A stretch of 16,108 nt of DNA, from positions 1-16,108 of the forward strand of contig JBHLME010000104.1 of assembly GCA_048938445.1 (NCBI GenBank), written 5' to 3'. Origin of the DNA: Promethearchaeota archaeon. Lineage in GTDB: Archaea; Asgardarchaeota; Lokiarchaeia; Sigyniarchaeales; SOKP01. The translations under genes and the position numbers were made by a program. Shown here one piece after another: positions 1-16,108 of this stretch. The stretch's first letter is position 1, and every line of letters starts with the position of its first letter. Below the pieces are notes generated by a model. It worked only from the letters and a program-made list of their open reading frames with translations, was not told the origin of the DNA and did not search any database.

Positions 1-2
1 CA

Positions 3-794
3 ATCTCTATTCATTTAAATAAGGAAAAAGAAAATGAAGAAATAAGATTTCAACGTAATTTAGAACGTAGAAAAAAATTACAGGAATTACTTGAAAAAAA
101 GGAACAAGCAGAAATACCAAAATCAGAAGGAGGAGAGCTTGAAACTAATCAAACAGATATGAAATTTGACCAAAAACCAAAAATTAAATCACTTCCTACA
201 GTAAATGAACAAGAAATTAAGGATAAAGATGCATTAATAGGAGCTATGGAAGCACTTGATGAAGAAATGAAAGGGTCTCAAATAGATGCAGTGCAATCTG
301 ATAAAAAATCAGAAGAATTGGAATTTGATGAGGTTCTAGAATTAGATGATGAAGAAAGGGATCTTACAGATTTAATACCCGAGAAAATTTTAAATTATCA
401 TGAGAAATACTCATTAATGAATGGCGGTTTAGTTCAATATGATAAACTTAAGGAATATGTCAGCCAAGAACTTAGCGATGTTACTGATGAATTCCCAGAA
501 GAACTCTTTAAACAAATCATTAATCAATTAAAGGAATTGCAGATGATCCAAAATATTATAAAAACGGCAGAGTATGAATTTCTTTTATTCAATGATATCA
601 AGTTAAATTTCTTGCATAGAAGATTTTTAACTCATGCAATTGATAAGGTTCCTTTACAGAAAGAAGATTTCATGAAAGGATTAAATTGGGATGAGGAAAA
701 GGTATTGAAAACAATGAAAGAACTCCAAGAAATGGGGATCATGAGAATTGAAAATGAAAAAATACTTCTACCTGGTTTAATTCAAAAAGAATAA
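3..794 (+). CDS. ESCRT-II Vps22/Vps36 (EAP30 domain)-like protein, 5' end outside the window
   Basis: The frame is open from base 3 (ISIHLNKEKENEEIRFQRNLERRKKLQE...) into the listed 159..794 ORF, so the true start lies upstream. After an acidic linker, the C-terminal part has tandem winged-helix-like segments, EKILNYHEKYSLMNGGLVQYDKL and LNWDEEKVLKTMKELQEMGIMRIENEKILLPGL. These resemble the NGGL and L-x-W...L...G...P-x-L patterns of Vps22/Vps36. Confidence 0.65.
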   Translation: MSIHLNKEKENEEIRFQRNLERRKKLQELLEKKEQAEIPKSEGGELETNQTDMKFDQKPKIKSLPTVNEQEIKDKDALIGAMEALDEEMKGSQIDAVQSDKKSEELEFDEVLELDDEERDLTDLIPEKILNYHEKYSLMNGGLVQYDKLKEYVSQELSDVTDEFPEELFKQIINQLKELQMIQNIIKTAEYEFLLFNDIKLNFLHRRFLTHAIDKVPLQKEDFMKGLNWDEEKVLKTMKELQEMGIMRIENEKILLPGLIQKE

Positions 795-813
795 ATAATA
801 TTATTATAGAAAT

Positions 814-2556
814 TTATAAAAAATTGTTATTTATATATTCTTGAACTGTCTTTATTTCATTTAGATGGGTTTCTCTCTTTCCAAATATATAAAATCGGAC
901 TTCGGGTCCTGTACCACTTGGTCTAAAATATAAGGTTGAGTCATCACTCTTTAATTGATATATATCTATCATTTTATTATTATCAGATAGGGCAGAGATA
1001 TGATATTTTTTATCTTTTATAGTTATTATCTTATTATCCTTTTCTTCAAAGTTTTTCATTAATCTAATTTTATCCTCATCGTTAGCAGGAATCGTGCTAT
1101 TAATTCCCACTATTGCCCAGTCAATCGATTTGGAAATAATATGCCCTCTGCAAATTAATTCAGTTATTAATATTAGAGCAGGTACGGGATATTTGTCCGC
1201 GATAATTGATATCTCTGAGTTAAATGTATACTTTTCTAAATCCTTTTCTTTAGAAATATTCACAATATTTATGGTATGGCCTCCAGATTCTTCCCACATG
1301 ACAATTATGAATTTCTCGTTTTCAATTCCTTTTTTTTCCATCAATTTTATTATTTGATGCTTCAATAGGATATCATTATTTATTTTTATAAGATTACCAT
1401 TATCATCTTCTACATATAATATAGCCGTGTCAATCTTAGATTGGTCTATTTCAACTCCTAAAAGAAAGTATAAAATTATCCCTAAATGTTTATAACCCAC
1501 TCCAGTTAATATGTTTATGAAACTCGTTTTGTCTCCCCTTAAATCGCTTGGAATCGTCCGAACATTGATAATTTTTTTATCATATTCATTTGCTAAGATG
1601 TTATGCATTGCAGAATATATCTCATTAGGAATATACGTGAAATATCCTTCATCTTGCTTGATATAGAGAGCAATTCTATCCCTATCCGCATCTAATAACA
1701 CCGCAATATCTGAATTTTGTTCAGACATTACTTTTTGAATCTTCTCTTCTTTTACTATTTTTATTGGATTGGGCGGATTTATTTCTTCTTCTATTAATAT
1801 CACATTTGCTTCATATTCTTTGAATAAATTAACGATTCCTCGAGCTTTACCTAAGTATGGCCAAATTATAATATTCCTACCTTTTAAGCTTTTAATTTCA
1901 ATTATATTTGCAAGTATATTCCTTACATAATCATTATTTTTTTGTTCAGCATTGATTAATATTGGTTTAAAATCCATATTAAAACGGATCTGATCATATG
2001 TTAATGCTTTTTGTGATATATCTTTAAACATATCTCCTGACATCGGTATTGCATACTGAATGTAAAATTTTATTCCATTCCAAGATAAATCATTATGACT
2101 TGCGGTTAATACAATGATCAAATCAATATCCTCAAGTAACGCAACAGAAGCTGCACCATAAGGAGAAGATAACCTTGATTCATTATTATCATCTTGCTGA
2201 TGATAAATTTCAAATCCTTCATGAGCAAAAATAGCAGAACAATATTTTAATAAAATTTTTCTACTTGGTCTATCATCCGTAACAATGAGAATCTTCAATT
2301 TTTTATTATTTGTAATATCCTTGAATTTATCACTTATGGCTCTGAAGACTCGTAGGAATAAATATAAATTCCTTCTGGTTAACAAATATTGATCCTCTTT
2401 GATTATATCATAAATTTGAATTCTTAAGCCAGAAGTTGGTGCAACAATTGGATTGATGATATTTTTTTCCGCTTCTGTTAATTCAGGTAACTTTAAAATA
2501 GCTATACCTTCTGAATCCCCTTCTAATTCAATGTCTTCTATTTTAAACTCTATCAT
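814..2556 (-). CDS. Alpha-D-phosphohexomutase family protein (phosphoglucomutase/phosphomannomutase-like)
   Basis: Motifs seen: TSGLR near the N-terminus, D-x-R-x-S (DDRPS), catalytic phosphoserine loop TASHN followed by WNGIKF, metal loop DADRDR, TGVGYK, sugar-binding loop WEESGG and C-terminal RPSGTGP. Confidence 0.9.
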   Translation of the reverse strand: MIEFKIEDIELEGDSEGIAILKLPELTEAEKNIINPIVAPTSGLRIQIYDIIKEDQYLLTRRNLYLFLRVFRAISDKFKDITNNKKLKILIVTDDRPSRKILLKYCSAIFAHEGFEIYHQQDDNNESRLSSPYGAASVALLEDIDLIIVLTASHNDLSWNGIKFYIQYAIPMSGDMFKDISQKALTYDQIRFNMDFKPILINAEQKNNDYVRNILANIIEIKSLKGRNIIIWPYLGKARGIVNLFKEYEANVILIEEEINPPNPIKIVKEEKIQKVMSEQNSDIAVLLDADRDRIALYIKQDEGYFTYIPNEIYSAMHNILANEYDKKIINVRTIPSDLRGDKTSFINILTGVGYKHLGIILYFLLGVEIDQSKIDTAILYVEDDNGNLIKINNDILLKHQIIKLMEKKGIENEKFIIVMWEESGGHTINIVNISKEKDLEKYTFNSEISIIADKYPVPALILITELICRGHIISKSIDWAIVGINSTIPANDEDKIRLMKNFEEKDNKIITIKDKKYHISALSDNNKMIDIYQLKSDDSTLYFRPSGTGPEVRFYIFGKRETHLNEIKTVQEYINNNFL

Positions 2557-2639
2557 ATGACTTGTTTATTAAAGTAACCTTATAAAAATTATTAAATCGA
2601 TAAAATTAAATCATTAAAGATACAAAAAAGACATTTTAA

Positions 2640-3527
2640 TCATTTATATCTGATATTTTTTATTGCTTCTCTTAAAATTCCAAGAATTTTTTCCCGATAC
2701 ATTGGTTCAATTGCCACCATTGAATGGAACTTAATATTTCTTCCTCCTTTAGAAAGAATTTTTTCACAAAATTCAGGTGTCAATCTATTTGATAAATCTT
2801 GTTTATTTGCAATCCCAATTACTAATTTATTTTTATAATGCTTTTCTAAAATATCTTGTATGATCTCTTTAGATGAATTTAAATTTTCAAAAGTAGAATC
2901 TGTTACTAAAAGTGCTATATCAGTACCATCTAGAAGACTTCCCCAGAGTGACCGGAAATTACTCTGTCCTGCAAAATCCCAAAATGTGATATCACGATGC
3001 AAGTTAGAATCTAAGTTGCCCCCATCAAATGAAGTGATATCTGCAGTAATAGTTGGTATATATTCTAAATTTATATCTTTTCCACAGATTAAATGAAGTA
3101 AAGACGTCTTCCCCACCCCACCAAGACCGATTATCGAAATTTTTATTGAACCTAAGACAACATTATCAACTTCTTTATGAAAATCTTGGAAAATTGCTCT
3201 ATTCCCCGCCCATTTATTGTCTTTAAGTACATCTTTATATTTCTCTATAAATTTATTCTTAATTGTTGCTATCTTGGGATTTATAAGATTATCATCATCA
3301 TCAAGATCGGCACATACAACTATAATGAGATTGTCAAAAATAGTATAATAATATTTATTGTCTTCAGTGGCGGTGTTTTTTATATCAGATTGTGAGATTT
3401 CTTTCATGAAACCTGAAAATGCACTTAAAAATCCTGCTAATAAGTCTCGGTCTACATCACTTTCTCCATAATTACGGAATAGAAGAGATTTACCATCTTT
3501 TGTAAGGATATTGATATATTGAATCAT
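2640..3527 (-). CDS. Longin-domain + Ras-superfamily small GTPase fusion
   Basis: The N-terminal ~125 aa have a longin-type pattern (IxILTKDGKSLLFRNY...DxDLLAGFLSAFSGFMKEI...LIIVVCAD). The C-terminal GTPase has G1 GLGGVGKT, G2 YIPT, G3 WDFAGQ and G4 NKQD; G5 is degenerate (MVAI). Confidence 0.85.
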   Translation of the reverse strand: MIQYINILTKDGKSLLFRNYGESDVDRDLLAGFLSAFSGFMKEISQSDIKNTATEDNKYYYTIFDNLIIVVCADLDDDDNLINPKIATIKNKFIEKYKDVLKDNKWAGNRAIFQDFHKEVDNVVLGSIKISIIGLGGVGKTSLLHLICGKDINLEYIPTITADITSFDGGNLDSNLHRDITFWDFAGQSNFRSLWGSLLDGTDIALLVTDSTFENLNSSKEIIQDILEKHYKNKLVIGIANKQDLSNRLTPEFCEKILSKGGRNIKFHSMVAIEPMYREKILGILREAIKNIRYK

Positions 3528-3677
3528 TTTTCATTTGTGCTGGTTTTCTTTCTCTAAAAAATAGAGTATCTTATGCGCGTATTCTAGACGACTAAAATTT
3601 AAAATAATATTAATTTATTAATTTAATAAAAATAAAATATTATAAAAATATGTTTTTTAAAATTTTCAGTATAATTA

Positions 3678-4301
3678 GTGTTTAATAAGGAGTCACAAAT
3701 GACAGATACAAAAGATTTGAATCAAGAAGAGATTGAAAACATTTTAATTGAGATTAACGGAAAACTAGAAAATTTTTCTTTAATTCTACAAAACTTCGGA
3801 TTAGATTTGATAACAAAATTAGGAAAAAATGAATCAAAACTTACTATGCTTACAGATAAAATTGAGAATCTTGCGAAAGCAACTTTAGATATTAAAGCAT
3901 TTACACCAATATTAAATAAAATAGTAGATCGGCAGAAATCAATAGAAAGTGAGTTAGATTTGTTGAAATCTTTAATACAACAATCTTTACAAATGAGGAA
4001 AACAGGTAAGTTAAATGAGAGTTTAATTAAAAGAGATGAATCAATAACCAATAATTTTGAATTAATTAAACAAAATTTTGAGAATTTTAAAGAAGAGATT
4101 GATAAAATAGAACAAACTGAAAAAGCTAAAGAGATCCTAATCAAAATAAGAGAAGATATTTTTGAATTAACTGGAGGACATCGAATTCTTTATGAAATAG
4201 CGCAAGTTATTAAATTATTGGAGGATAAAATTCCATTTGATGATGAATTAAAAACAATTTTAAGGGATAAAATAGGATTTTGGATGAATAAATTAAAATA
4301 A
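3678..4301 (+). CDS. Hypothetical helical/coiled-coil protein (probable start ATG 3699)
   Basis: 207-aa ORF with genome-typical codon bias and heptad-like L/I/E/K content. AAGGAG at 3687-3692 precedes ATG 3699, which is a more likely start than the listed GTG. Confidence 0.7.
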   Translation: MFNKESQMTDTKDLNQEEIENILIEINGKLENFSLILQNFGLDLITKLGKNESKLTMLTDKIENLAKATLDIKAFTPILNKIVDRQKSIESELDLLKSLIQQSLQMRKTGKLNESLIKRDESITNNFELIKQNFENFKEEIDKIEQTEKAKEILIKIREDIFELTGGHRILYEIAQVIKLLEDKIPFDDELKTILRDKIGFWMNKLK

Positions 4302-4326
4302 AACAAAATTTTAAGGAATATTCATA

Positions 4327-4641
4327 ATGGTACAATTCAAAATTGGTGAAGAACACGAAGGAGATTATACCTGTGATGATTGTAGATCATTCATAGATGG
4401 ATTTTGTTACAGATGGTCCTTTCCAATCCAAAGTAATCATATTCCCTGTACAAAATTTAAATATCAAAAAAAAATTGAAGAAGAAATAGATCTATCAACT
4501 ACTCCTAACGAAAAGTCCTTATTACAGGATTTTTTCCGAGAATTAAGAAAAGCTAATAAAGAAATTGATGGAAAATCCTATCTGGAGATATATACTACTT
4601 TTGATGAATTAATAAATAAGTATGCTCAAAGGTTACTTTAA
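4327..4641 (+). CDS. Small hypothetical protein with putative Cys4 metal-binding N-terminus
   Basis: C-x2-C-x7-C-x13-C pattern (CDDCRSFIDGFCYRWSFPIQSNHIPC). Starts 25 nt after the previous gene on the same strand, so probably co-transcribed. Confidence 0.65.
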   Translation: MVQFKIGEEHEGDYTCDDCRSFIDGFCYRWSFPIQSNHIPCTKFKYQKKIEEEIDLSTTPNEKSLLQDFFRELRKANKEIDGKSYLEIYTTFDELINKYAQRLL

Positions 4642-4689
4642 AATTTTCTTTATTAGTTTATGGTACAAAAAATAAGGTAAAAGATTTGG

Positions 4690-5287
4690 TTACGATTTTA
4701 CTTTTGATTGCCGTGTAATTTCGGCCATTTTTTTAAAAATATTTTTTACATTATCCCCCGTCTTTGCGGACGTTTCATGATATGCACAATTGAGTTTATC
4801 GGCCAAATGCTCCGCCATGGGTTGGATAATTTTTCTTTCATCCTTTAAATCAATTTTATTACCAATTAAGACACGTGGAATCCCACTAAGACCATATTTT
4901 ACAGCAGTATTATACCAATTTTGAACATTTGAAAATGTACTACTTCGTGTAATGTCAAATACAAGCATCATCCCATCTGCTCCATTAAAATAAGGGCGAT
5001 GAAGCATGTAAAACTGAGGTTGACCTGCTATATCCCAAATCATCAAATTAACCATAATTTTCTCGCCCTTTTCCTCAACCTCAACAATTTCCTTAACGAT
5101 ATCTGCACGCCTATAACGCCTGTGTTATAGACGTTGTGCCTACCGTTGGAATGTATTGAGTCTTGAATTTTTTCGAAGAATATTTATCTAGAAGCGAGGT
5201 CTTACCTACTTGAGGATCTCCAACAACTATGATCTTATAAATCACTTCAGTTCTTCCTTCGAAAACGATTTCTTCTTCTCCGGACAT
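4690..5287 (-). CDS. Rab-like small GTPase split by a 31-nt insertion; predicted spliced CDS complement(join(4690..5102,5134..5287)), 188 aa
   Basis: ATG at 5287 reads MSGEEEIVFEGRTEVIYKIIVVGDPQVGKTSLLDKYSSKKFKTQYIPTVGT, containing G1 and G2. This part is absent from the ORF track because it stops at TAG 5113-5111 after 58 aa. The downstream frame reads IVKEIVEVEEKGEKIMVNLMIWDIAGQ...NKID...ETSAK (G3, G4, G5). Exons of 154 + 413 nt give 567 nt = 188 codons + stop. Confidence 0.92.
5103..5133 (-). other. Putative 31-nt bulge-helix-bulge (tRNA-endonuclease-type) intron in mRNA
   Basis: mRNA reads AACGGUA-G-GCAC-AA^C-GUCUAUAAC-ACAGGC-GUUAUAGGC-GUGC-AG^A-UAUCGUU. This gives a 7-bp exon-exon stem, a 4-bp central helix GCAC/GUGC, two 3-nt bulges (AAC, AGA) on opposite strands and a 9-bp intron stem with a 6-nt loop. 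Cleavage after the second nucleotide of each bulge removes 31 nt and restores the frame. Confidence 0.8.
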
Positions 5288-5553
5288 TTTTTCTTTTTCA
5301 CAAGTTATTTTTAATTATATATGAAAATAAGAATAAGCATTTTTAAGAATTTCTATATCTTTATTTTAACGATTTAAGTTTTCATTTTTTTTATTTTATT
5401 ATTGTAATTATTGTTTATTTTTAGAATTATTAATTAGTCATTTTTCAGAATAAAAATAAAAAATGCTTATTATTCTATGTATCAAGAAATTTAATAAGAG
5501 AATAATTCATATAGAATTATACTCATGTATAAACCAAGAAGGTATAAAGATTC

Positions 5554-8124
5554 ATGAATGAAAAAATCAAAGAATTTCTAAAAGAAGGAAGAGTTGCATT
5601 TTTTTTAGGGGCGGGTATTTCAATGATTCCTCCATCATGTCTACCCAGCTGGTGGCAAATAAATCACGCAATTCTTGATTCCTTAGCCGATGAAGGTGCT
5701 GAAATCGTTCCAGAATTAAGAGATTTAGCTGAAATGATTAAAAAAAGGGAGGAAGAAGGAAGATTACCCCCAGAATTTGTAGCTGAAATCATTACAAATC
5801 GAATTGGAAAATCTTATTTCGAAGTTTTACAAGTCTTAGAAGGAGATACACCTAATTTAGCACATTTGTGGTTAGCAATATTAGCTAAAGCAGGATTATT
5901 AAAAGCTATCATTACCACCAATTTTGACACGCTAATAGAAAAAGCTTTTGAGAAAATTGGAGTTCCCCTAAAAGTTCTTGTCAATTCTAGAGAGTATGAA
6001 AATATAGAAAAATTTGAAGATTCAAAAGAGCCGTGCATGTTATTGAAGTTACATGGTACTGCCACCCTCCCTGATACATGTATTGACACTTTAGCCCAAA
6101 GAAAACGTGGATTGCACCCAAACATTACTCAAGCATTAGATTATATTGGAACTCGGACATTTTGGATCTTCTTAGGATATTCTGGAGCAGATTTAGAGGC
6201 AGAACCTAATTATCTTGGGATACGTCATCGGATGAATAATTCACCTGGATTTGCCTGGTTACACTTGCCAGAAAGAGATCCCCTCCCTGTTATTTCAGAA
6301 CTAGCTAATTTATATGGAGCAAATAGGGGATTAATAGAACATGGAGTTTTACCGGATTGGTTAGATGAATGCAAAAACATTCTTCCGGAAAATGTTCAAG
6401 CTCCAAAGAGCATTATCCTTGCTGGAGAGAAAATTCAACAAATTAAAAATGAAAAAAGTGAATATATCCAAGAACATGCTCTTAGTTGGGCAAAAAAGCA
6501 AGGCAGTGCTGAATGTGCTCTAATACTTTGTGATATTGGTGTTGATTCTGGTTTTTACGATATAGCAAGATCTATATTATTAAAACTGCACGAAGGAGTA
6601 GGAGAGTTTACGTTAACTCCGATTGGAAATGCTTTAGTTTGTCAACTTTTAGGTGAAATATCAAGAAGATTTGGAGAAATGGAAAAAACCTTGAAGTATC
6701 ATCAGGATGCGGCGAAATATTTTCAAGAAGCTAATAATCTTGAAGGATATCATGCGTCTGCACAAGATATTGCAAACTTAAAATGGCAATTTGGATATTT
6801 TGAAGAAGCTGAAAAAGATTTATACAATATTATGGAATATCATCAAAAAGTTAATGATAATGAAGGTCATGTTCATGCGTTATTAGATTTAAGCAACTTA
6901 TATCGAGAAACTGATCAATATCAAAAAGCGATGAATTTATTAAACGATGCAATTAAAATAGCAGCTAAAAATGGTCTTGAAATACTACGGGCACACGGTA
7001 TTTTAGGAAAGGCACTAATAGAAAGTGAATTGGGAGAAATGGAAGATGCTGAGAATCTCGTATTAGAATCTATAGATATATATACACGGTTGGGAGATGA
7101 CAATTTCTTATCGGAAGCTTCAAGAGAGCTTTCACAAATTCATTTCAAGCGTGGAGAAATTCAAGAAGCACTAGATATTCTTGAAAAATCTAGACAAAGT
7201 GCAATTCTAGTTGGAAACAAGTCCAGAATTATTAGGGCTGAAAGGGTAAAGGGAGAATACTTATTAAAGTTAGGAGAATACAACGAGGCAGTCTCCGTTT
7301 TAAACAATTCATTGAAAAAGGCGAATGAACTTGGAGATTTTATTCTTATCATCACAATTATGCAAAGTCTTGGATTAGCTCATCAATCACAAGGTAATGT
7401 TAATGAAGCAAAATCAATATACCAGGAAGCCATAAACAAGGCAGAAAAAAATGGATTAGATGTAAAAGCTGCAGGAATAAAAACTAACTTGGGAATCATA
7501 TTGGAACAAAGTGGTGAGGTTGAAAATGCTTTACATAACTATGAAGAAGCAGATAAGGTTTTCAAGCGCATGGGCATATTAGAATCGATTGCAGGATCTC
7601 AAGGAAATCTAGGGAACATTCATTTCCGTTTAGGGAATTACGCGGAAGCCCAAAAATACTATGAAGAAAGCATGAAGATTGCTGAGAAACTTCAAAATAT
7701 TGATGTTGTTTTAAGAACTAAGTATAACATCGCGAATGTGGTATTACAGTCAGGAGACATGGAAGGAGCGAAGATGCAATATCAACAAGCAATCGACTTA
7801 GCTAAGAAATATGAACAAAAGGGATTAAAGGACATGTTTCAAATAAATTATGCGGGTCTTTTATTTCAATTGGAAGACTATCATCCAGCTTTAGAACTTT
7901 ATGGAAATGCTTACGTTTCTTGTATCGAACGTAAGGATTATCTACAAGCCGGCACAGCGATCTATTATGCTGGTTTATCTTATTTCCGTTTGAATGAAGT
8001 GCAAAAAGGCATTAAATTATTAGAGGAAGCTATTGACACGTGGAAAATGCTTGATGAAGAACCCCCGCAACTAGCTGAAGCTCAACAAACATTAAATTCG
8101 GTAAGAGAACAATTAAACTCATAA
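5554..8124 (+). CDS. SIR2-like (SIR2_2 type) domain fused to a long TPR array
   Basis: N-terminal sirtuin-like motifs FLGAGIS, ITTNFD, LLKLHG and FLGYSG. From about residue 320 there are about 12-13 TPR-like repeats with a 40-aa period (e.g. NLGNIHFRLGNYAEAQKYYEESMKIA). No Walker A motif was seen. Confidence 0.88.
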   Translation: MNEKIKEFLKEGRVAFFLGAGISMIPPSCLPSWWQINHAILDSLADEGAEIVPELRDLAEMIKKREEEGRLPPEFVAEIITNRIGKSYFEVLQVLEGDTPNLAHLWLAILAKAGLLKAIITTNFDTLIEKAFEKIGVPLKVLVNSREYENIEKFEDSKEPCMLLKLHGTATLPDTCIDTLAQRKRGLHPNITQALDYIGTRTFWIFLGYSGADLEAEPNYLGIRHRMNNSPGFAWLHLPERDPLPVISELANLYGANRGLIEHGVLPDWLDECKNILPENVQAPKSIILAGEKIQQIKNEKSEYIQEHALSWAKKQGSAECALILCDIGVDSGFYDIARSILLKLHEGVGEFTLTPIGNALVCQLLGEISRRFGEMEKTLKYHQDAAKYFQEANNLEGYHASAQDIANLKWQFGYFEEAEKDLYNIMEYHQKVNDNEGHVHALLDLSNLYRETDQYQKAMNLLNDAIKIAAKNGLEILRAHGILGKALIESELGEMEDAENLVLESIDIYTRLGDDNFLSEASRELSQIHFKRGEIQEALDILEKSRQSAILVGNKSRIIRAERVKGEYLLKLGEYNEAVSVLNNSLKKANELGDFILIITIMQSLGLAHQSQGNVNEAKSIYQEAINKAEKNGLDVKAAGIKTNLGIILEQSGEVENALHNYEEADKVFKRMGILESIAGSQGNLGNIHFRLGNYAEAQKYYEESMKIAEKLQNIDVVLRTKYNIANVVLQSGDMEGAKMQYQQAIDLAKKYEQKGLKDMFQINYAGLLFQLEDYHPALELYGNAYVSCIERKDYLQAGTAIYYAGLSYFRLNEVQKGIKLLEEAIDTWKMLDEEPPQLAEAQQTLNSVREQLNS

Positions 8125-8178
8125 AAATAGCAAGAATGAGAGAATCTGTTAAATTAGATCCTGTAAATATAGTACTTA

Positions 8179-8724
8179 TCATTTTATTTTTAATGAGATA
8201 GTTTTTTCGACTTGAAACTTTGATTTCTTTTCATTCTTACGAGAAATAAAAAAAATTTTTTTTAATTCGAACTTTGTACTGCTCCAAGAAGTCTGTAGTT
8301 CCCTCATCAAACTTATCATAGTATCTCTCCCATTAACTTGTCCAACACTCAAGTGAGGAGTAAAGCCACCTTGGTGCTTGTTAACATCATTACAATCAGG
8401 GACAATTTTTAATAATTCTAATTGAAATTCTTTTAAGGAACTTATAGGTTCGGGCTCAAGCCAGATGGTATAATGTTCATGATGGTGATGAAAAAACTTA
8501 AAATTGTTTAATTGTAATTCAAATGGTTCGATAATCGTGCAAGTCTCTGAAAAAGTAGATTCAAGTGATATAAATTCTGATTTAGGCCTAAAGGGATATA
8601 ATAAATTAATGTGAGGCATCCATCTATTGATTTGACGGTCATACTTTTTTCTAATAACTTGAATTGGTTCCCAACATGAACGTGGAGGAATGATCACGAC
8701 TGCTGAAGTATATACCTTGCTCAT
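8179..8724 (-). CDS. 2H phosphoesterase (2'-5' RNA ligase/cyclic phosphodiesterase superfamily)
   Basis: Two H-x-[ST]-type motifs at typical spacing: variant WMPHINLLYPF and FTPHLSVGQ. Length is 181 aa. Confidence 0.88.
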   Translation of the reverse strand: MSKVYTSAVVIIPPRSCWEPIQVIRKKYDRQINRWMPHINLLYPFRPKSEFISLESTFSETCTIIEPFELQLNNFKFFHHHHEHYTIWLEPEPISSLKEFQLELLKIVPDCNDVNKHQGGFTPHLSVGQVNGRDTMISLMRELQTSWSSTKFELKKIFFISRKNEKKSKFQVEKTISLKIK

Positions 8725-8770
8725 TATATGATTATAATAAAGTTATTATGTTTTATATTGTATACATATA

Positions 8771-9283
8771 ATGAAAATGAATATCAAGCAAAGACACTTT
8801 ATTAAGAGTTCAGAAATAAAATCGCTAAAAGCAGATATTTTAAAACAGTATGACAATGAATTTATTGACCAAATTATCCCAAACAAGGCTCGGATTGAAG
8901 TCATTTACACGGAGGCTGGAGACACCTTATACGCTATTAATGGAGAGTTAAAACTTTGGAAATCTATGGAGGGATACATTCCAGTATTAACATTGCTTTT
9001 AAAAGGAAAGATAAATATAAAAACAGTTATCGTAGATATGGGGGCCATAAGGTTCGTGACAAATGGTGCAGATGTAATGCGTCCGGGAATTACAAAAATC
9101 GATCCATCCATAACCAAGGGAGATATCGTGAAAATCGCTGATGAAACCCATGGAAAGACCTTAGCAGTAGGAAAAGCATTGTATGACGCAGATGAGATGG
9201 AAAAAATAACAAAAGGGAAAGTCATTAAAAATCTTCATACGATCAAGGATTCTGTTTGGAATTTTTCTAAAGAGTTTAAATGA
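8771..9283 (+). CDS. Pre-PUA (DUF1947-like) + PUA RNA-binding protein, archaeal MCTS1/Tma20-like
   Basis: Characteristic VIVDMGAIRFVTNGADVMRPGI, followed by GDIVKI...LAVGKA and GKVIKNLHTIKDSVW. N-terminal RHFIKSSEIK. Confidence 0.92.
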   Translation: MKMNIKQRHFIKSSEIKSLKADILKQYDNEFIDQIIPNKARIEVIYTEAGDTLYAINGELKLWKSMEGYIPVLTLLLKGKINIKTVIVDMGAIRFVTNGADVMRPGITKIDPSITKGDIVKIADETHGKTLAVGKALYDADEMEKITKGKVIKNLHTIKDSVWNFSKEFK

Positions 9284-9579
9284 ATTCTTTTAATAAAATG
9301 TTTTTATAATTCTCTTTATCCTTCTTATTTAATTCATTAACGTCAGTGCTCATTCGATTATAATAATCCGGATCGCTTTCACTCATTTAGTATAGAATCC
9401 TTTTTCCTGTAATTGCTAATCGCAATAAATACCTTGCTAAACTAAGTTTTAAAAAAGAGTAAAGTCATTTAAAATAATAGATTTTGTCGTCTTGTTGCTT
9501 CGATCATTACGAACGTTATAAAAATTTTAATAATTACTTTTATAGCTTATAAATGCAAACCATTAGAACATGATATAAA

Positions 9580-9888
9580 CTATTCAATTGCTTTTTTTAT
9601 GATTGAATAAGCAACATGTTTTTCATTTGTATTTAGATCATTTATATCTTTACCAGAATAATCATACTTGTCAATATTTCTATCATGATACAAGCAAGCG
9701 ATTATCAGCATGGCATTTTGAAAAAAAACTTCGCTTTCTATTTCACGTGTAACTTCAATGAGTTTGTAAATAGAATCTTCGAAGAAATGATCTTTAGTTT
9801 CAGCATCAAGGTTCTTTTCTAGTTGTAAGTAGTTGTTAAAAACGAATGAATAAAAATCATATTCTCTTATCACTTTTTTTAAACACAC
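9580..9888 (-). CDS. Hypothetical protein
   Basis: 102-aa ORF with a GTG start and no overlap with other genes. No recognisable motif; start uncertain. Confidence 0.5.
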   Translation of the reverse strand: MCLKKVIREYDFYSFVFNNYLQLEKNLDAETKDHFFEDSIYKLIEVTREIESEVFFQNAMLIIACLYHDRNIDKYDYSGKDINDLNTNEKHVAYSIIKKAIE

Positions 9889-10082
9889 CCCTTCAACATT
9901 TTATTAAATGCAAAAAAAAAATATAACCGACGAATATCATTACGACTAATTTAATTTTTAAATGCATTATTTTTAGATTTTAGTCCGTGTTAGTGGTACG
10001 AACAAATATTTGATATAGTTTTGTTAAATCAGATTCTTAAAATACTAATTCTAATTAAAAAAAAAAATGATTTAAAAAAAAT

Positions 10083-10601
10083 TTAGTGAGTTTTAGAGTA
10101 AGAAGGGTATCTCTTTTCTAGTTCAGCTTTCACTTCTTCATCCGTCTTAAGTTTAGTAAATAAACTATAGCACAATACTCCACCAATGATGATTAAAAAT
10201 GGATCAATATAGAGCCCCAATCCATTCATCGGTATAGGATGAATTCCACCAGAAATTACGCTTAGATCAATAACCCCTATTGGTATATTTATACCTATTA
10301 TTGCGATAACTCCAAAGATTATGCAAATAGCACCTCCAATTAGTCGATTTTTAAATGAAATGATCGCTCCACAAAGTGCTCCTAATCCAAGAAATAATGT
10401 CACACCTCCTGTTATGTACAACAACGAGTGATCGATCCCTAATGAAGTCCAACTTTCCCCTGCTAATAGAATTAAAATTTCCAATGTGCCTAATATTCCA
10501 AATACAGATAATCCTCCTAATGATAATAATATAGCTCCAATCATTGCAACTATAGGACCAATTTTTGATTGGTAAGGTTTTAATGTATTTTTCTTATTCA
10601 T
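10083..10601 (-). CDS. Hypothetical membrane protein (about 4 TM helices)
   Basis: Four Gly-rich hydrophobic segments and a charged C-terminal tail. Confidence 0.75.
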   Translation of the reverse strand: MNKKNTLKPYQSKIGPIVAMIGAILLSLGGLSVFGILGTLEILILLAGESWTSLGIDHSLLYITGGVTLFLGLGALCGAIISFKNRLIGGAICIIFGVIAIIGINIPIGVIDLSVISGGIHPIPMNGLGLYIDPFLIIIGGVLCYSLFTKLKTDEEVKAELEKRYPSYSKTH

Positions 10602-11045
10602 TATTTAGACCTCTCAAATAAATATTGTCTTTAAGTATATAAATTTGCAGACTATTTAAATATTAATGGTAAATGATTGAAGGTTCTTGGATGTATACTA
10701 TAAACCATACTCAAACAATTATATTTAATCACTTATTTTATTTCTTATAATTTTTGTAGGGTATTTTTCCAGTAGAAATAGACGTCTAGTAAGTTCTTTT
10801 TTGTTTTTACTATAATTTTTTTTACTTTTTCATTTAAATATGATTTTTCTCATCTCTTAATCATGATAAGGCTGAGTAATACGAGAAATATCGTGAAACA
10901 TAATAAAAAGATCGCATATTATGCAGATATAGCCTGAATAATACTCGATTTCAAAAATTAACATCGACTTGTATTACTTGGATATTAGTATTAAGGGTCA
11001 TGACTGGTATATGTTAATGATTCTTAGAAAATATGAATAAAATAA

Positions 11046-11372
11046 ATGGGTGTATGTGTTAAAATGAGCATGTTTAGGAGTTATTTACTAAAAAACAATT
11101 TTTGGGCAAAAAAGGGAAATGAAAAAGATCCAAACAATTCTGAGAAAGTTTATATCAAACACAATGAAGTCGTTGGCGGGATTTGGGCGATCATTGAAAA
11201 TAAACCAGATAGAAAAGGCGTGAAAATCATCGTAGAAGGCCTTGAATATTTTTTCAATAACTTTGATAAATTAGATGCGTTTCTCAATCGATTAGAACAA
11301 AAGCAAAATGATTTCATGAGAATAGTTCGAAGGCGGGATATTAGCCATAAATTGAGAACTTTAGAAATTTAA
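11046..11372 (+). CDS. Hypothetical protein
   Basis: 108-aa ORF with plausible globular composition. Several possible start codons; no recognised motif. Confidence 0.6.
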   Translation: MGVCVKMSMFRSYLLKNNFWAKKGNEKDPNNSEKVYIKHNEVVGGIWAIIENKPDRKGVKIIVEGLEYFFNNFDKLDAFLNRLEQKQNDFMRIVRRRDISHKLRTLEI

Positions 11373-11557
11373 ATTAATATCGTTTGAAGAATTATTTTTA
11401 AGTTTTAATCATTTAGCTTATTAAATTAGAATATTTCAAGAAGTTTGTCAAATTATTGATAATTTTATAAATAAATTCTTCAATAGGTATGAATTAAAGA
11501 TAGCATTCCTATTTTAATTATCTACCAAATATATTAAAATATTGAGGAAAAAAATGA

Positions 11558-12094
11558 TCAATCATCCAATTCCGTAGAAACTATAGTTCTCATTCCTAAA
11601 ATCAACATTATTAATGCTGAGGGCAACATTATCATGAAGATGAAGAGATCTATAAAATTTTTCGTTGTCATTGGGAATTCTAAATTATAAATCATTAGCT
11701 GATAATCGAGAGGATCAAAACTTGATATGTTTAATAATATTGGATAAATAATTGAATTGGTGACCAATTGCAAAATTGCGATTAATAATATAATGAAAGA
11801 ACATAGCATAACTATTTTATTAATATTTTCTTTCCTTATAGATTTCCATAGTTCAATCATTAATGTAATTGAACTCACGGGAATTAATATTAATCCAAGA
11901 TAATATATTGATATGATTAAATATATTATCGATTGACCAATTAAGAAAAGAATCTGATCTCCTATTTCTATAACTCCCGGTGTGGTATAAGCAGATGAAA
12001 GAAGAGAATTTGTCATCCAATTTAAAGAAATGTTAATCATTACCAATAGAAACAAGATTATAGATAATATTTTAGAAATATTTGATTTATTCAT
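11558..12094 (-). CDS. Hypothetical membrane protein (about 4 TM helices)
   Basis: Four long hydrophobic I/L-rich segments. Confidence 0.7.
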   Translation of the reverse strand: MNKSNISKILSIILFLLVMINISLNWMTNSLLSSAYTTPGVIEIGDQILFLIGQSIIYLIISIYYLGLILIPVSSITLMIELWKSIRKENINKIVMLCSFIILLIAILQLVTNSIIYPILLNISSFDPLDYQLMIYNLEFPMTTKNFIDLFIFMIMLPSALIMLILGMRTIVSTELDD

Positions 12095-12273
12095 ATAATT
12101 TCATCTTTTATAACTTGAGAAAACATGTTAAAAGAAAAATCTAAAATGTTTTATTACACAACTGAGATTTTTCATTTTTATATATGATCCTTAAAAAATG
12201 AAAGTCTTCATTAAAAACTAAAGGATAAGTGGATAATAACCCATTTAACATGCTATACGATTTGTTTTTCAAA

Positions 12274-13083
12274 TTATAAAGTCAAGATGAGCCTCTCAAT
12301 ATCCAATACTTTACTAGCGAGCCTTATAAATACAAGACATAGGACGCTAATAATTCCGGCAATTATTATAATGATAACAGGAGAAAGAAATGCGGGATTG
12401 ACCATTTGAACGAAAAAAAGCCCAAAAAGAGGGACAATTAATGAACCCCCAATGCTTTGAGCACTTTTTACTGTCTTTACGCGAGAACTAATGATCACGT
12501 TTATTTGTATGAATAAAAAAGAAATTAAAGGAGATATGAGAAATCCTATTAATAAATCGGATAAATCCGTGAAAATTAAGAGATTTCCGTTTAAGTATGA
12601 TAAAAACATTAGATTAGTAATTAGTCCTAAACCAAAAAAACACAAAATGCTGATAATCAAGGAGGGAATAAATGAGGTCATTACTTTCCCGAGTATCAAC
12701 TCTGTTTTAGTTATTGGCAACAAGGCTAAATTTTCCATTGTTTTTCTTTCTTTTTCACCCGCAAATGAGTCTGCAGAGATAAAACTTGAGGTAAATCCAG
12801 GAACAAATAAAAAGAAGGGAATTACCATCCATTTAATCATGAATATTGCTGCCTGTAAATGCACATCATAATGGGAAATATTAAGGAGTACAATAAAAGT
12901 ACTAGCACCAGGATATTCTGCCAAAAAGGTAAAAGGATCAACGAGTGCCGCAATCATCATAAAAACAGGTAAAAATATCGTGAAAATCATTGGTAATATT
13001 ATTACTGCCGCTAATATTTCTTTATTGCGTATTGTTCCTTTCCAGTCCTTTCTCATAATCTTCCAGCTATTTATCAAGTTCAT
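12274..13083 (-). CDS. ABC-2 type transporter permease
   Basis: About 6 TM helices and the motif ADSFAGEKERKTMENLALLPITKTELILGKV. Lies 12 nt downstream of the ATPase gene. Confidence 0.92.
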   Translation of the reverse strand: MNLINSWKIMRKDWKGTIRNKEILAAVIILPMIFTIFLPVFMMIAALVDPFTFLAEYPGASTFIVLLNISHYDVHLQAAIFMIKWMVIPFFLFVPGFTSSFISADSFAGEKERKTMENLALLPITKTELILGKVMTSFIPSLIISILCFFGLGLITNLMFLSYLNGNLLIFTDLSDLLIGFLISPLISFLFIQINVIISSRVKTVKSAQSIGGSLIVPLFGLFFVQMVNPAFLSPVIIIIIAGIISVLCLVFIRLASKVLDIERLILTL

Positions 13084-13095
13084 TTTAATCCATCC

Positions 13096-14064
13096 TCACT
13101 CCTGTTGATTTTGCATCAATTTAAGATATATATCCTCCAATGAATGAATGGTTCGGTTAATTTCTAGAATCCTAGCATTTGAATCTACCAATTCTTTCAC
13201 GATCAATGGAGTTGTCTCATCAGCGTCCCTTGAATAAAAATAAATTTTATTATCATCAATTCGATATTGATCGATATAATTTAAGCGAGATATTTTTTCT
13301 TGAATTTCTTTTGATACAGGTGATACAAGAGTGCAAACCATTTCTTGGGTTTTGAAAAGATCATTCCTAAGTTCTGAAGGTGTACCTATACGTTTTATTT
13401 GTCCTAAATCTAAAATTGCTACTCGATCACAAATTTTTTGGACTTCCTCTAAATTATGTGAATTTATGAAAAGTGTTCGATGCTTTTTTTTTAAACTTAG
13501 AATTAAATCTCGAACTTTTACAGATGCAATAGGGTCAAGACCAGAAGTAGGCTCGTCAAAAAATAGAATTTGAGGATCATGTAAAAGTGCTCTGGCTATT
13601 GCTAGACGTTGTTTTTGCCCTTTTGACAACTTTCCTGCTTTCATGTCTTTTCTTTTAATTAGGTCTATTTCTTGGAGAACTGAATCTATTCTCTTTTCCA
13701 ATTCTCCTGGTTCAATGTCATAAAAGCTGCCAAAAAACCGCAAGTTATCATGAACTGAAAGATATTCATAGTTACCATGGTTCTCTGTTAAAAATCCCAT
13801 GTTCTTTCTTAATGAATGTTCTTGTTTTTTCAAGTTTTCTCCATTAACAAGAATGTTTCCTGCGTGTGGTTTCAATAATCCTGCGATACATCGAATGGCC
13901 GTGGTTTTTCCCGCGCCATTAGGACCAAGCAAACCAAAGATCTCACCTTGTTTAACCTCAAAACTCACGTTATTTAAAGCCCAAATCTCACTTTCTTCTT
14001 CCGATTTACTTTTTTTATTGTAAAATACTTTTGAAAGGTTCTCGACCTTGATTACTGACTCCAT
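13096..14064 (-). CDS. ABC exporter ATP-binding subunit (multidrug/ABC-2 type)
   Basis: Walker A GPNGAGKTT, signature LSKGQKQR, Walker B ILFFDEPTSGLD, H-loop NSH and C-terminal SLEDIYL. Confidence 0.96.
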   Translation of the reverse strand: MESVIKVENLSKVFYNKKSKSEEESEIWALNNVSFEVKQGEIFGLLGPNGAGKTTAIRCIAGLLKPHAGNILVNGENLKKQEHSLRKNMGFLTENHGNYEYLSVHDNLRFFGSFYDIEPGELEKRIDSVLQEIDLIKRKDMKAGKLSKGQKQRLAIARALLHDPQILFFDEPTSGLDPIASVKVRDLILSLKKKHRTLFINSHNLEEVQKICDRVAILDLGQIKRIGTPSELRNDLFKTQEMVCTLVSPVSKEIQEKISRLNYIDQYRIDDNKIYFYSRDADETTPLIVKELVDSNARILEINRTIHSLEDIYLKLMQNQQE

Positions 14065-14166
14065 AGTATAAGTAAAAGTTTATTAATTATTATAATTATA
14101 TAAGATAAATCAAGTTATTAAGATATTTAACATAAGATAATCAAAAAAAAAGAATAAATTAAAATA

Positions 14167-14745
14167 TTAATATATTTTTGAACCACAATTTTCACAGAAA
14201 TTAACATCTTGAGCCAATTGATGACCACAATACACGCAGAAGGTCTTTCCTTCTGAAGCAATTGGAGCTATGATCTTTTTCGAAGGAGGTTCATAATTTT
14301 CAGCAGGAGCATACGAAATGCTTTCTCCAAGGATTATTTCTCCCGTTTCAGCATTAAAGCGGTATCTTATTTTCCCACTATTACGTAAGACTAAAAGGAC
14401 TCTTAACACATCCTTTGGTTTAATTCCAACTTCAAGAGCTATGTCCTCTAGTTTATATGTTCCCTGCCCCCGGGAGATTATGGCCGCTTTAATTGCTTGT
14501 TTATACCTACTATTGGTATATATCTGTTGGAATCCTCCGATAAAGATAAAAAAAGCTGGTATGAACATCCAAAACCCCCAAGTGCGTAAGGAAAGGAAAC
14601 CATTATCTAAAGCATGAAGTACTAACGATAGAATCGCAACAAATAAAAAAACTCCTGCACAACCAAACGAGCCTGCTGCTGCTTCATAAGATTTATCCGA
14701 ATAATATCTATGTCTATATTTTTCCTTGTCTTCTTCCATTGTCAT
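14167..14745 (-). CDS. Membrane protein with two TM helices, a winged-helix-like region and a C-terminal zinc ribbon
   Basis: Two N-terminal hydrophobic helices, an HTH-like segment YKLEDIALEVGIKPKDVLRVLLVLRNSGKI and C-terminal FCVYCG-x8-FCENCG. Confidence 0.75.
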   Translation of the reverse strand: MTMEEDKEKYRHRYYSDKSYEAAAGSFGCAGVFLFVAILSLVLHALDNGFLSLRTWGFWMFIPAFFIFIGGFQQIYTNSRYKQAIKAAIISRGQGTYKLEDIALEVGIKPKDVLRVLLVLRNSGKIRYRFNAETGEIILGESISYAPAENYEPPSKKIIAPIASEGKTFCVYCGHQLAQDVNFCENCGSKIY

Positions 14746-14864
14746 ATCATTAAAATTAATTACTAATAACTATTAAAATGAAGAAAGTAAATTTAATTTT
14801 AAAAATTATTGTAGTCCAAATATTAGGAAAAATTAATGCTGTATTTTTTAGACCCTCAAGCTTG

Positions 14865-15716
14865 TTATATCTCATACTTTAAATAAAAATGAACTTTAGG
14901 ATTACTTAAACGGAAATCTTTACTAACTGAATCTAATATCATTTCAGTCTTACCTACGACTAGTAATCCTTGAGATATTAAGTGTTCTGACATCATTTTA
15001 AGAACTTTACGTTGAGAGTTTTGATTAAGATAAATTAAAAAATTTCTACAAAAAATAATATCATATTTTTGATTGAATTGATGTCCCTCAATCAAATCTT
15101 CTTGAATAAATGTTACTTTCTTTTTAATCTCATCATTTATTATGTGTTTAGAACTTAATTTACTTTTTTTTCCTGTAAAATATGATTTATAAATAATAGG
15201 TAACTCATGAATAGAATAGTTACCATACTTTCCTTTTTTTGCCATATTGATGGCGTTAATATCAATATCAGATGCGAAAATTTCAATGTCTGGAATATTC
15301 TTATTATATCTTTTAAGATAGTCAAACATCATTGCCAAAGAATAGGGTTCTTCACCTGTAGAACACGGAGCGGACCAAATTCTCAAAACATCTTGATTAT
15401 TTCTTTTAATTTTACGATTAAGAAAGTCCGACATAAGAGCTTGATATACTTCATAATTCCTAAAAAAATAGGTATAATTTACGGTAAAAAAGTTGCTAAA
15501 ATTATTAAATTCTGATGGGGTTCTTAAAATATATTCAAAGTATTCTTTATCTGACTTTAGATTTAAATTATGAATTCGGGTTTTTATTTTTCGTTCTAAA
15601 AATTTCTGTTTATAACATTTAACATTTATTTTAGTAGATTTACGTAAATGATCAATTAAAAATTGAATTGATTCTGGGTGAAGACTAATTTTATCTATAG
15701 CTGATTCTGCTAACAT
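14865..15716 (-). CDS. cheR: CheR-type protein-glutamate O-methyltransferase
   Basis: Motifs YKQKFLERKI, TVNYTYFFRN, RIWSAPCSTGEEPYSLAM, IFASDID, YDIIFCRNFLIY and GLLVVGKTE. Confidence 0.93.
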   Translation of the reverse strand: MLAESAIDKISLHPESIQFLIDHLRKSTKINVKCYKQKFLERKIKTRIHNLNLKSDKEYFEYILRTPSEFNNFSNFFTVNYTYFFRNYEVYQALMSDFLNRKIKRNNQDVLRIWSAPCSTGEEPYSLAMMFDYLKRYNKNIPDIEIFASDIDINAINMAKKGKYGNYSIHELPIIYKSYFTGKKSKLSSKHIINDEIKKKVTFIQEDLIEGHQFNQKYDIIFCRNFLIYLNQNSQRKVLKMMSEHLISQGLLVVGKTEMILDSVSKDFRLSNPKVHFYLKYEI

Positions 15717-16108
15717 GTTTTAAAAATGAAGACCCTAAAATTATACCTAATTATGACTATAACACAAGATTGTCCTTTTAAAGTAATTTAATCACTTTTT
15801 TCATACCTATAATTTTTAAAACCTAAATAAGAAAAACTAACTACAAAAATGTAATAAAATTTAATTCAAGTATGATGATATATAAAATACTTTTTTAATT
15901 TACTTATAAGAAGTGTATTCATTAGAATAAAAATGATTTTTACTGATTAAATTAAAAATTAAAGGTACACTTTTCTTAAAATTCAGTGAATAATGATGTT
16001 AGAACATCATAATATTTATTTTTTAAAAAAAACAATGAAGTTTTAAATCAAAAGAATGTTATTCTTAACCGTTAATTAAAATAATGGTTTGAAAGCGCGA
16101 CTCCTAAT

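Follow-up and report, generated by a model that had tools for sequence, protein, structure and literature searches.

The stretch of DNA analysed here (the window, 16,108 nucleotides (nt) in length) is contig JBHLME010000104.1, positions 1 to 16,108, of a draft genome of a Promethearchaeota archaeon (GCA_048938445.1; hereafter G000). Its minus strand carries, at 5287..4690, a gene for a GTPase of the Ras superfamily which is split by an insert of 31 nt at 5133..5103. The N-terminal part is an open reading frame (ORF) of 58 amino acids (aa) at 5287..5111, closed by an in-frame TAG (5113..5111) inside the insert, and the C-terminal part (5100..4690) is open in a different frame up to the stop codon at 4692..4690. 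In the output of gene callers, genes of this kind will appear as a pair of fragments or as pseudogenes, and the ORF listing for this one has products of 58 and 121 aa. Both halves exceed the cut-off (21.6 bits) of the Pfam Ras profile, PF00071, the N-terminal half matching profile positions 1-33 with 35.4 bits and the C-terminal half positions 45-158 with 115.1 bits (E 3e-33). All five nucleotide-binding motifs can be read in the translations: G1 GDPQVGKT, G2/switch I PTVGT, G3 WDIAGQ, G4 GNKID and G5 ETSAK. The insert has 16 G+C among its 31 bases (52%) in surroundings of about 28-33% G+C, and its excision in silico yields a single frame of 188 aa. [quoted passage not shown] The analysis supports this proposal, and a probability of roughly 0.8 is assigned to the reading that the insert is a BHB pre-mRNA intron in an Asgard Ras/Rab-like GTPase, spliced by the endonuclease EndA and the ligase RtcB. 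The support is comparative DNA evidence: the boundaries of the insert, a colinear product, the enzymes encoded, 17 further inserts in orthologues, covariation and purifying selection.

According to PMC6379350, the BHB motif is defined by two bulges of 3 nt on opposite strands, with a helix of 4 base pairs (bp) between them, at the exon-intron boundaries. Around the insert the coding strand can form bulges at 5135-5133 and 5104-5102, a central helix with four of four pairs made (5139-5136/5108-5105), an outer helix of 7 bp and an inner helix of 9 bp, which is the strict hBHBh' form. Every pair listed by the first-pass annotation was verified individually. Both non-Watson-Crick pairs are G-U, hence the motif belongs to the coding strand only, as had been claimed; the folding z-score of that strand is -5.3, with none of 200 shuffles equally stable, versus -2.4 for the opposite strand, which folds to -15.3 kcal/mol. 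Rfam gave no match in the window at the gathering score and none within 4950-5300 at E up to 1. A group I or group II intron, or another Rfam family, was rejected on this ground and because 31 nt is far too short.

The boundaries of the insert can be fixed independently of the fold. When 40 related genomes were searched in six frames, four from the same genus proved to have the orthologue without interruption, its C-terminal part being 84-96% identical. Aligned as DNA with these four orthologues, the window shows one gap, exactly 5133..5103, which cannot slide; since the flanking bases differ, the boundaries defined by homology are unambiguous. EndA cuts after the second base of each BHB bulge, a rule that follows from tRNA 37/38 geometry. 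The cut sites which it predicts are the alignment boundaries, so that the earlier calculation of an exact, in-frame removal of 5133..5103 agrees with the gap seen against all four orthologues and with the 188-aa frame. At the junction the DNA of the same-genus orthologues reads A followed by AT, an Asn codon. The spliced protein aligns without gaps over residues 1-188 with the orthologues L005 and L006, at 96.8% and 95.7% identity; cutting at the bulges and joining would thus yield, in silico, a product colinear with intact orthologues. Weaker BHB structures (5/4/5 bp) of the same topology arise in this genome 3742 times in about 1.2e9 position-by-length trials, or about 3e-6 per trial, and what takes the structure in the window beyond chance is that homology sets both its position and its length in advance. 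The coordinates of gene and motif are collected in Table 1.

Table 1. Parts of the split GTPase gene and of the predicted BHB motif (window coordinates)
Feature	Position	Strand	Remarks
Exon 1	5134..5287	-	From start codon to first base of the Asn codon; G1, G2/switch I; Pfam Ras 1-33; colinear with orthologues
Putative BHB intron, 31 nt, with in-frame TAG	5103..5133	-	Absent in 4/4 same-genus orthologues; unique in the genome; present in independent contigs
Exon 2, including stop 4692..4690	4690..5102	-	G3, G4, G5; Pfam Ras 45-158
Whole BHB motif (h-B-H-B-h')	5095..5147	-	On the mRNA strand; pair list; -20.5 kcal/mol
Outer (exon) helix, 5' strand	5141..5147	-	Pairs with 5095-5101, 7/7 pairs, one G-U
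Outer (exon) helix, 3' strand	5095..5101	-	Pair check
Central 4-bp helix, exon strand GCAC	5136..5139	-	Pairs with 5105-5108; covaries with intron strand
Central 4-bp helix, intron strand GUGC	5105..5108	-	Pair check; orthologue comparison
5' bulge AAC	5133..5135	-	Predicted cut between 5134 and 5133, equal to the alignment-defined boundary
3' bulge AGA	5102..5104	-	Predicted cut between 5103 and 5102, equal to the alignment-defined boundary
Intron hairpin	5109..5132	-	9-bp helix 5132-5124/5117-5109 (one U-G); 6-nt loop 5123-5118

The insert in the window is one of many. An orthologue of the GTPase was found at E 1e-33 or better in 114 of 135 genomes of the same family (labelled G, their contigs C and individual loci L), and genomes with inserts were picked out by open frames that were short or by stops within the matched region; a further 61 loci (L150-L210) came from metagenomes. 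A second search of 10 of the 21 genomes without a match returned contig-end fragments only (G057, G130). Together the two sets hold 18 inserts of 30-38 nt (17 besides that of the window) at four sites of one orthologue, each of which shifts the frame or carries stops. They occur in nine of the 114 genomes (G000, G014, G054, G058, G060, G092, G103, G110 and G141) and in eight of the 61 metagenome loci, two of which, L190 and L192, are identical. The sites are here named p1 to p4. Site p1 lies before G1 (carriers G103 and L190) and p2, the site of the window's intron, in switch I (G000, G058, L197, L201 and L202). Site p3 follows WDIAGQ (G014, G054, G060, G092, G110, G141, L197, L198, L206 and L208) and p4 follows (R/K)PY (G014). 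Two genes have two inserts each, L197 and the one in G014 (locus L033), where introns of 33 and 38 nt at p3 and p4 leave an exon of 30 nt between two BHB motifs. The records bearing the orthologue are titled Promethearchaeota or Promethearchaeia archaeon and the lineage is therefore Asgard, in accordance with the 'Asgard-type' label of the first-pass annotation. In one genus (G122:C10, G108:C61, G116:C145, G117:C59 and G109:C38) and on some metagenome contigs (L166, L169, L180) the orthologue is repeated in tandem, with two or three copies separated by a few hundred bases.

The central helix was scored at the register which restores the conserved protein, with random positions of the same genes as the null. 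All four central pairs form in 13 of the 18 inserts (null, 2.26% of 349,531 trials), and a perfect central helix combined with at least four contiguous inner pairs is found in 10 (null, 0.063%). At p3, where six introns and their flanks were aligned, 86.9% of 84 cells pair; sliding the partners by 1-3 columns lowers this to 30-44%. Changes on both sides are seen in five pairs, and none of 500 shuffles reaches the covariation score, although with six related sequences this count cannot be read as a probability. The exchange crosses the exon-intron boundary: within the central helix an exon Gly codon ends in A, G or U opposite an intron U, C or A, with one GGC codon whose third base stands opposite A, a mismatch. 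At p2 the central helix reads GCAC/GUGC in G000, GCGU/GCGC in L201 and L197, and GCGU/GCGU in G058 and L202. The G before the central helix is identical in all five p2 introns; in G000, L201 and L197 it stays unpaired in the outer helix that fits best, in G058 it is unpaired in one of two computed registers, and L202 is without a clear outer helix. The structure is thus conserved with compensatory change, in few and related sequences, and the presence, absence and stem covariation which the first-pass annotation had proposed to look for among orthologues are all found.

The intron-bearing GTPase genes are under strong purifying selection. Between G000 and its nearest orthologues the ratio of non-synonymous to synonymous divergence (dN/dS) is 0.017-0.019 at a synonymous divergence (dS) above 1.2, with 72 synonymous and 10 non-synonymous differences; the changes specific to G000 are six synonymous and one non-synonymous. 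G060 and G054, which share a homologous p3 intron, differ at 67% of synonymous sites (dS 1.67, dN/dS 0.046), and their introns are identical at 26 of 30 positions. For L197 and L208, which likewise share a p3 intron (22/31 identical), the figures are 51%, dS 0.87 and dN/dS 0.084. A stop-bearing insert that is kept over such divergence in a constrained protein must go before translation. The decay that would have spoken against an intron, with dN/dS near 1 and no structural conservation, is not what is seen: dN/dS spans 0.017-0.084 and the structure is conserved.

G000 encodes the enzymes that such an intron requires, namely two EndA homologues, one of them catalytic and the other without the catalytic His, and one RtcB (E 3.5e-169). 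Along its full length the EndA of 202 aa aligns with 3p1z_B, the catalytic chain of Aeropyrum pernix EndA (E 1.8e-35), and keeps the Tyr, His and Lys; its 'KPR' aligns with K44 and R46 of the Crenarchaea-specific loop. This loop confers broad substrate specificity, and K44 is required, according to PMC3241643. The paralogue of 204 aa has no His at the corresponding position and is likely a structural beta subunit. Asgard archaea are reported in PMC5829648 to have an (alpha-beta)2 EndA that carries this loop.

A course of events can be proposed on this basis. The GTPase gene would be transcribed with the insert included, and exon bases 5147-5136 and 5101-5095 would fold with bases of the intron into helix, 3-nt bulge, 4-bp helix, 3-nt bulge and helix. 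A heteromeric endonuclease, formed by the catalytic alpha subunit with its broad-specificity loop and, likely, the His-less paralogue as beta, would then cut after the second base of each bulge. RtcB would join the exons, and the 31-mer would probably be circularised. The Asn codon, made up of A from one exon and AU from the other, would be rebuilt and the frame of the 188-aa GTPase restored.

The inserts are scattered over the orthologue phylogeny. A quick maximum-likelihood tree was made from 82 orthologue proteins, after 10 loci with fewer than 165 aligned residues and 5 duplicates had been dropped and G110 (L038, cut by the contig start) left out. On this tree 14 intron-bearing rows need 13 changes, and strongly supported branches force at least 6; the clustering of the rows does not exceed that of shuffled labels (285 of 500 shuffles gave as low a number). 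This suggests that the mini-introns are frequently gained and lost, because sister sequences differ in the site (p3 in G092, p2 in G058) and near-identical proteins in the presence (L208 versus L178) of an intron. A further-reaching view, put forward tentatively and less likely to be right than wrong, is that they form a mobile family of BHB mini-introns of 30-38 nt which repeatedly enter and leave four hot spots of one Rab-like GTPase. The hot spots would lie in or beside nucleotide-binding motifs (ahead of G1, within switch I (G2), behind G3 and within switch II), the conserved codons would serve as the exon half of the motif, and EndA and RtcB might have a gating role. If splicing were dependent on conditions, the two enzymes would gate production of the GTPase, and the closest relatives of eukaryotes would then possess a prokaryotic equivalent of unconventional mRNA splicing of the HAC1/XBP1 type. 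Whichever way it proceeds, frequent gain and loss bears on the origin of introns in protein genes and of RtcB-dependent mRNA splicing.

The first-pass annotation had suggested a scan of the genome for other frameshifted genes repaired by BHB excision; scans of G000 produced no further convincing case. Mirror-topology (wrong-handed) BHB structures served as the control. A strict scan (5/4/5 bp, introns of 20-150 nt) returned 3888 real, 3742 one-extra-base and 4002 mirror structures, with no excess, and the numbers joining two frames of at least 40 codons were 81, 73 and 94, respectively. In a relaxed scan for BHB-joined frames with introns of 20-60 nt, scores of 15 or more were reached by 6 real and 2 mirror cases; its filter for 'disrupted' frames also lets through sites near gene ends. 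Inspection was confined to two GC-rich candidates, C47:4264 and C84:8519, and showed normal coding sequence in both. Either BHB-joined genes are not general in G000 or the scans are too weak to see them. No second copy of the intron was found in G000, the best partial match being 16/17 nt on C176, inside an unrelated coding region, and cbf5, the gene with the known archaeal precedent, is uninterrupted. Within the weak power of the scans, the window's intron looks like a singleton in G000 and the phenomenon seems tied to this orthologue.

Paralogous GTPases flagged for stops supplied no intron case among the seven loci aligned. L144, L145, L147 and L149 have no stop on realignment; in L143 and L146 the stop falls on the N-terminal margin of the match and probably precedes the start; and L148 (G055:C107) has a single in-frame TAA after the motif AGQKKF, a nonsense codon. 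Another copy, L041 (G066:C165), lacks its N-terminal half, has a degenerate G4 motif and is decayed. On C164 of G000 a paralogue at 271-749 (+) is split between two frames that overlap by 6 nt, and about 10 residues are absent from the stretch between switch I and WDFAGE. This has the look of a frameshift or deletion, whether in a pseudogene or by sequencing error, and not of an insert.

The tRNA genes of G000 were also called. ARAGORN made 62 calls, 24 of them with introns, several implausible (1634 and 2475 nt), and these were not used as evidence. About 29 intronless tRNA genes, packed together and covering most amino acids, lie on C215 at about 6483-15105, and calls outside C215 are sparse and often have introns; C215 may be a viral or contaminant contig. 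In the window itself, the divergent neighbour of the GTPase gene, at 5554-8124 (+), encodes a protein of 856 aa in which an N-terminal SIR2_2 domain (PF13289) precedes numerous TPR repeats. Pfam matches neither of the two small ORFs, at 3678-4301 and 4327-4641, that lie downstream of the GTPase gene.

Several observations count against an EndA/RtcB-spliced intron. The motif in the window deviates from the definition by an extra unpaired G5140 opposite the 3' bulge, which EndA would have to tolerate. The BHB structure (-20.5 kcal/mol) is not the minimum free energy fold (-22.8 kcal/mol), in which the intron hairpin is longer by 2 bp and the central helix is not formed. The cutting rule itself is carried over from the geometry of tRNA position 37/38. 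Among the 18 inserts, five have only three of four central pairs and two fold poorly as BHB motifs, that of G054 making 3/2/1 pairs and that of L202 needing a 2-nt bulge. The relaxed scan gave 832 BHB-joined frames against 915 in the mirror control. The insert is absent from all four closest relatives and may be young in this lineage, and the dN/dS of G000 cannot date it. Finally, cutting and ligation in the cell are inferred from evidence at the DNA level.

Some of these points recur in the rival accounts. The insert could have made a young pseudogene, in which a short hairpin-forming DNA breaks the gene and stays in the RNA, and only the fragment of 58 aa is made. Absence of the insert from four of four congeners, which may mean a recent arrival, agrees with this, as does the presence in the group of decayed GTPase copies (one with a frameshift on C164, a truncated one in G066, and L148 with its nonsense codon). 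A random insert, however, would not carry a BHB whose cuts restore the ancestral codon exactly (even a weaker motif has a chance of only about 3e-6 per position and length), nor would it account for BHB-shaped inserts with covariation at four sites of the same gene in many lineages. Homologous introns persist over dS of 0.9-1.7 while dN/dS stays at 0.05-0.08, and even in G000 the specific changes are one non-synonymous versus six synonymous. The pseudogene is accordingly thought improbable. Poorer still are the prospects of an error of assembly or binning, by which the 31 nt would be absent from the real genome. G000 is, it is true, a draft of 256 contigs with 8% estimated contamination. Contigs of four DNA runs were compared over 4600-5400, however, and the insert was recovered with no differences in independently assembled contigs: one of 152 nt (5044-5195) in another sample of the same study (X2, record 6), in which the insert is present, and one of 172 nt (5120-5291) in another study (X3, record 11), in which it is partly covered. 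A second X2 contig has a net 31 nt missing; it differs at 11 other positions and therefore comes from an intron-less relative. The intron-bearing orthologues themselves stem from separately titled assemblies. The insert is thus almost certainly real, and an artefact is hardly conceivable.

Translational bypassing, in which the ribosome hops over the insert, is known from gene 60 of phage T4 and from the GC-rich 'byp' elements of mitochondria. It would suit a GC-rich insert with a stable hairpin in AT-rich coding DNA, and a hop from ACA (5137-5135) to GAT (5103-5101) would keep the frame, with the codon before the landing site, GCA (5106-5104), matching the take-off codon at two of three bases. 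The match of ACA with GCA is nonetheless incomplete, and the hop would give Asp where all orthologues compared at this site have Asn, so that neither the matching codons nor the conserved protein expected of a bypass element is found. The other sites are without a matching take-off and landing pair: the codons at p3 are CAA versus AAU, and at p4 of G014 landing on UAU meets a stop two codons later. Bypassing also leaves unexplained the 3-nt bulges spaced by 4 bp and the covariation between exon and intron. It is considered very unlikely, more so than the pseudogene. Splicing by EndA and RtcB is therefore the preferred explanation.

Precedents for such an intron are few. The intron of cbf5 has reportedly been treated by Watanabe in 2002, Yoshinari in 2006 and Yokobori in 2009. 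In PMC2738675 it is described as a BHB-like intron in the coding region of a crenarchaeal pre-mRNA, cut by a hetero-oligomeric EndA of broad specificity, and patchily distributed with lineage-specific loss. A paper of 2020 states that cbf5 is the only reported case of a BHB intron in archaeal coding mRNA besides its own case in a 5' untranslated region (UTR; PMC7714728). BHB introns in Asgard protein genes were not reported in the full-text literature searched, which did not extend to supplements, in agreement with the earlier remark that no case was known in Asgard GTPases. The intron described here shares with that of cbf5 a BHB-like form, a place in a protein-coding region, the broad-specificity type of EndA and a patchy distribution. 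It differs in its host, a Ras/Rab-like GTPase and not a pseudouridine synthase; in its phylum, the Asgard archaea; in having four sites, with as many as two introns in a single gene (G014, L197), where cbf5 has one site; and in a distribution so patchy that 14 rows need 13 changes. Splicing of the GTPase intron is, moreover, predicted. If it is spliced, this would be the second gene family with a coding BHB intron, in a eukaryote-signature gene and in the archaeal lineage closest to eukaryotes.

In Haloferax volcanii, HVO_1309 has a BHB intron of 46 nt in its 5' UTR, for which PMC7714728 gives circRNA-seq and in vitro cleavage. Both this and the GTPase intron are small and are mRNA substrates, actual or predicted, of the endonuclease outside tRNA and rRNA; the HVO_1309 intron is untranslated, no reading frame depends on it, and it has been demonstrated by experiment. 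The splicing endonuclease of H. volcanii is of the euryarchaeal type. For tRNA genes of Asgard archaea, repeated independent gains of BHB introns are described in a preprint (bioRxiv 10.64898/2026.10.13.758758). The GTPase introns have in common with them the lineage, presumably the enzymes, and the repeated independent gains. The hosts are different, being tRNA genes in the preprint, whose text has 0 occurrences of 'mRNA' and of 'GTPase'.

Two systems beyond the archaeal introns invite comparison. Bypass elements, those of T4 gene 60 and the mitochondrial byps, are likewise GC-rich hairpin inserts of about 30-50 nt in AT-rich coding sequence, yet it is the ribosome that skips them, while the RNA keeps them, and they depend on matching take-off and landing codons, of which none were found for the present inserts. 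In HAC1 and XBP1, IRE1 cuts two stem-loops and a tRNA ligase joins the ends, under regulation by stress. The likeness lies in a very short intron whose removal changes the frame, without a spliceosome and with ligation chemistry of the RtcB type, whilst IRE1 acting on two stem-loops stands against EndA acting on a BHB, and no homology of the introns is implied. Set beside these systems, the GTPase case stands out by its host gene, in which there are four sites, by the smallness of the intron and by the lineage.

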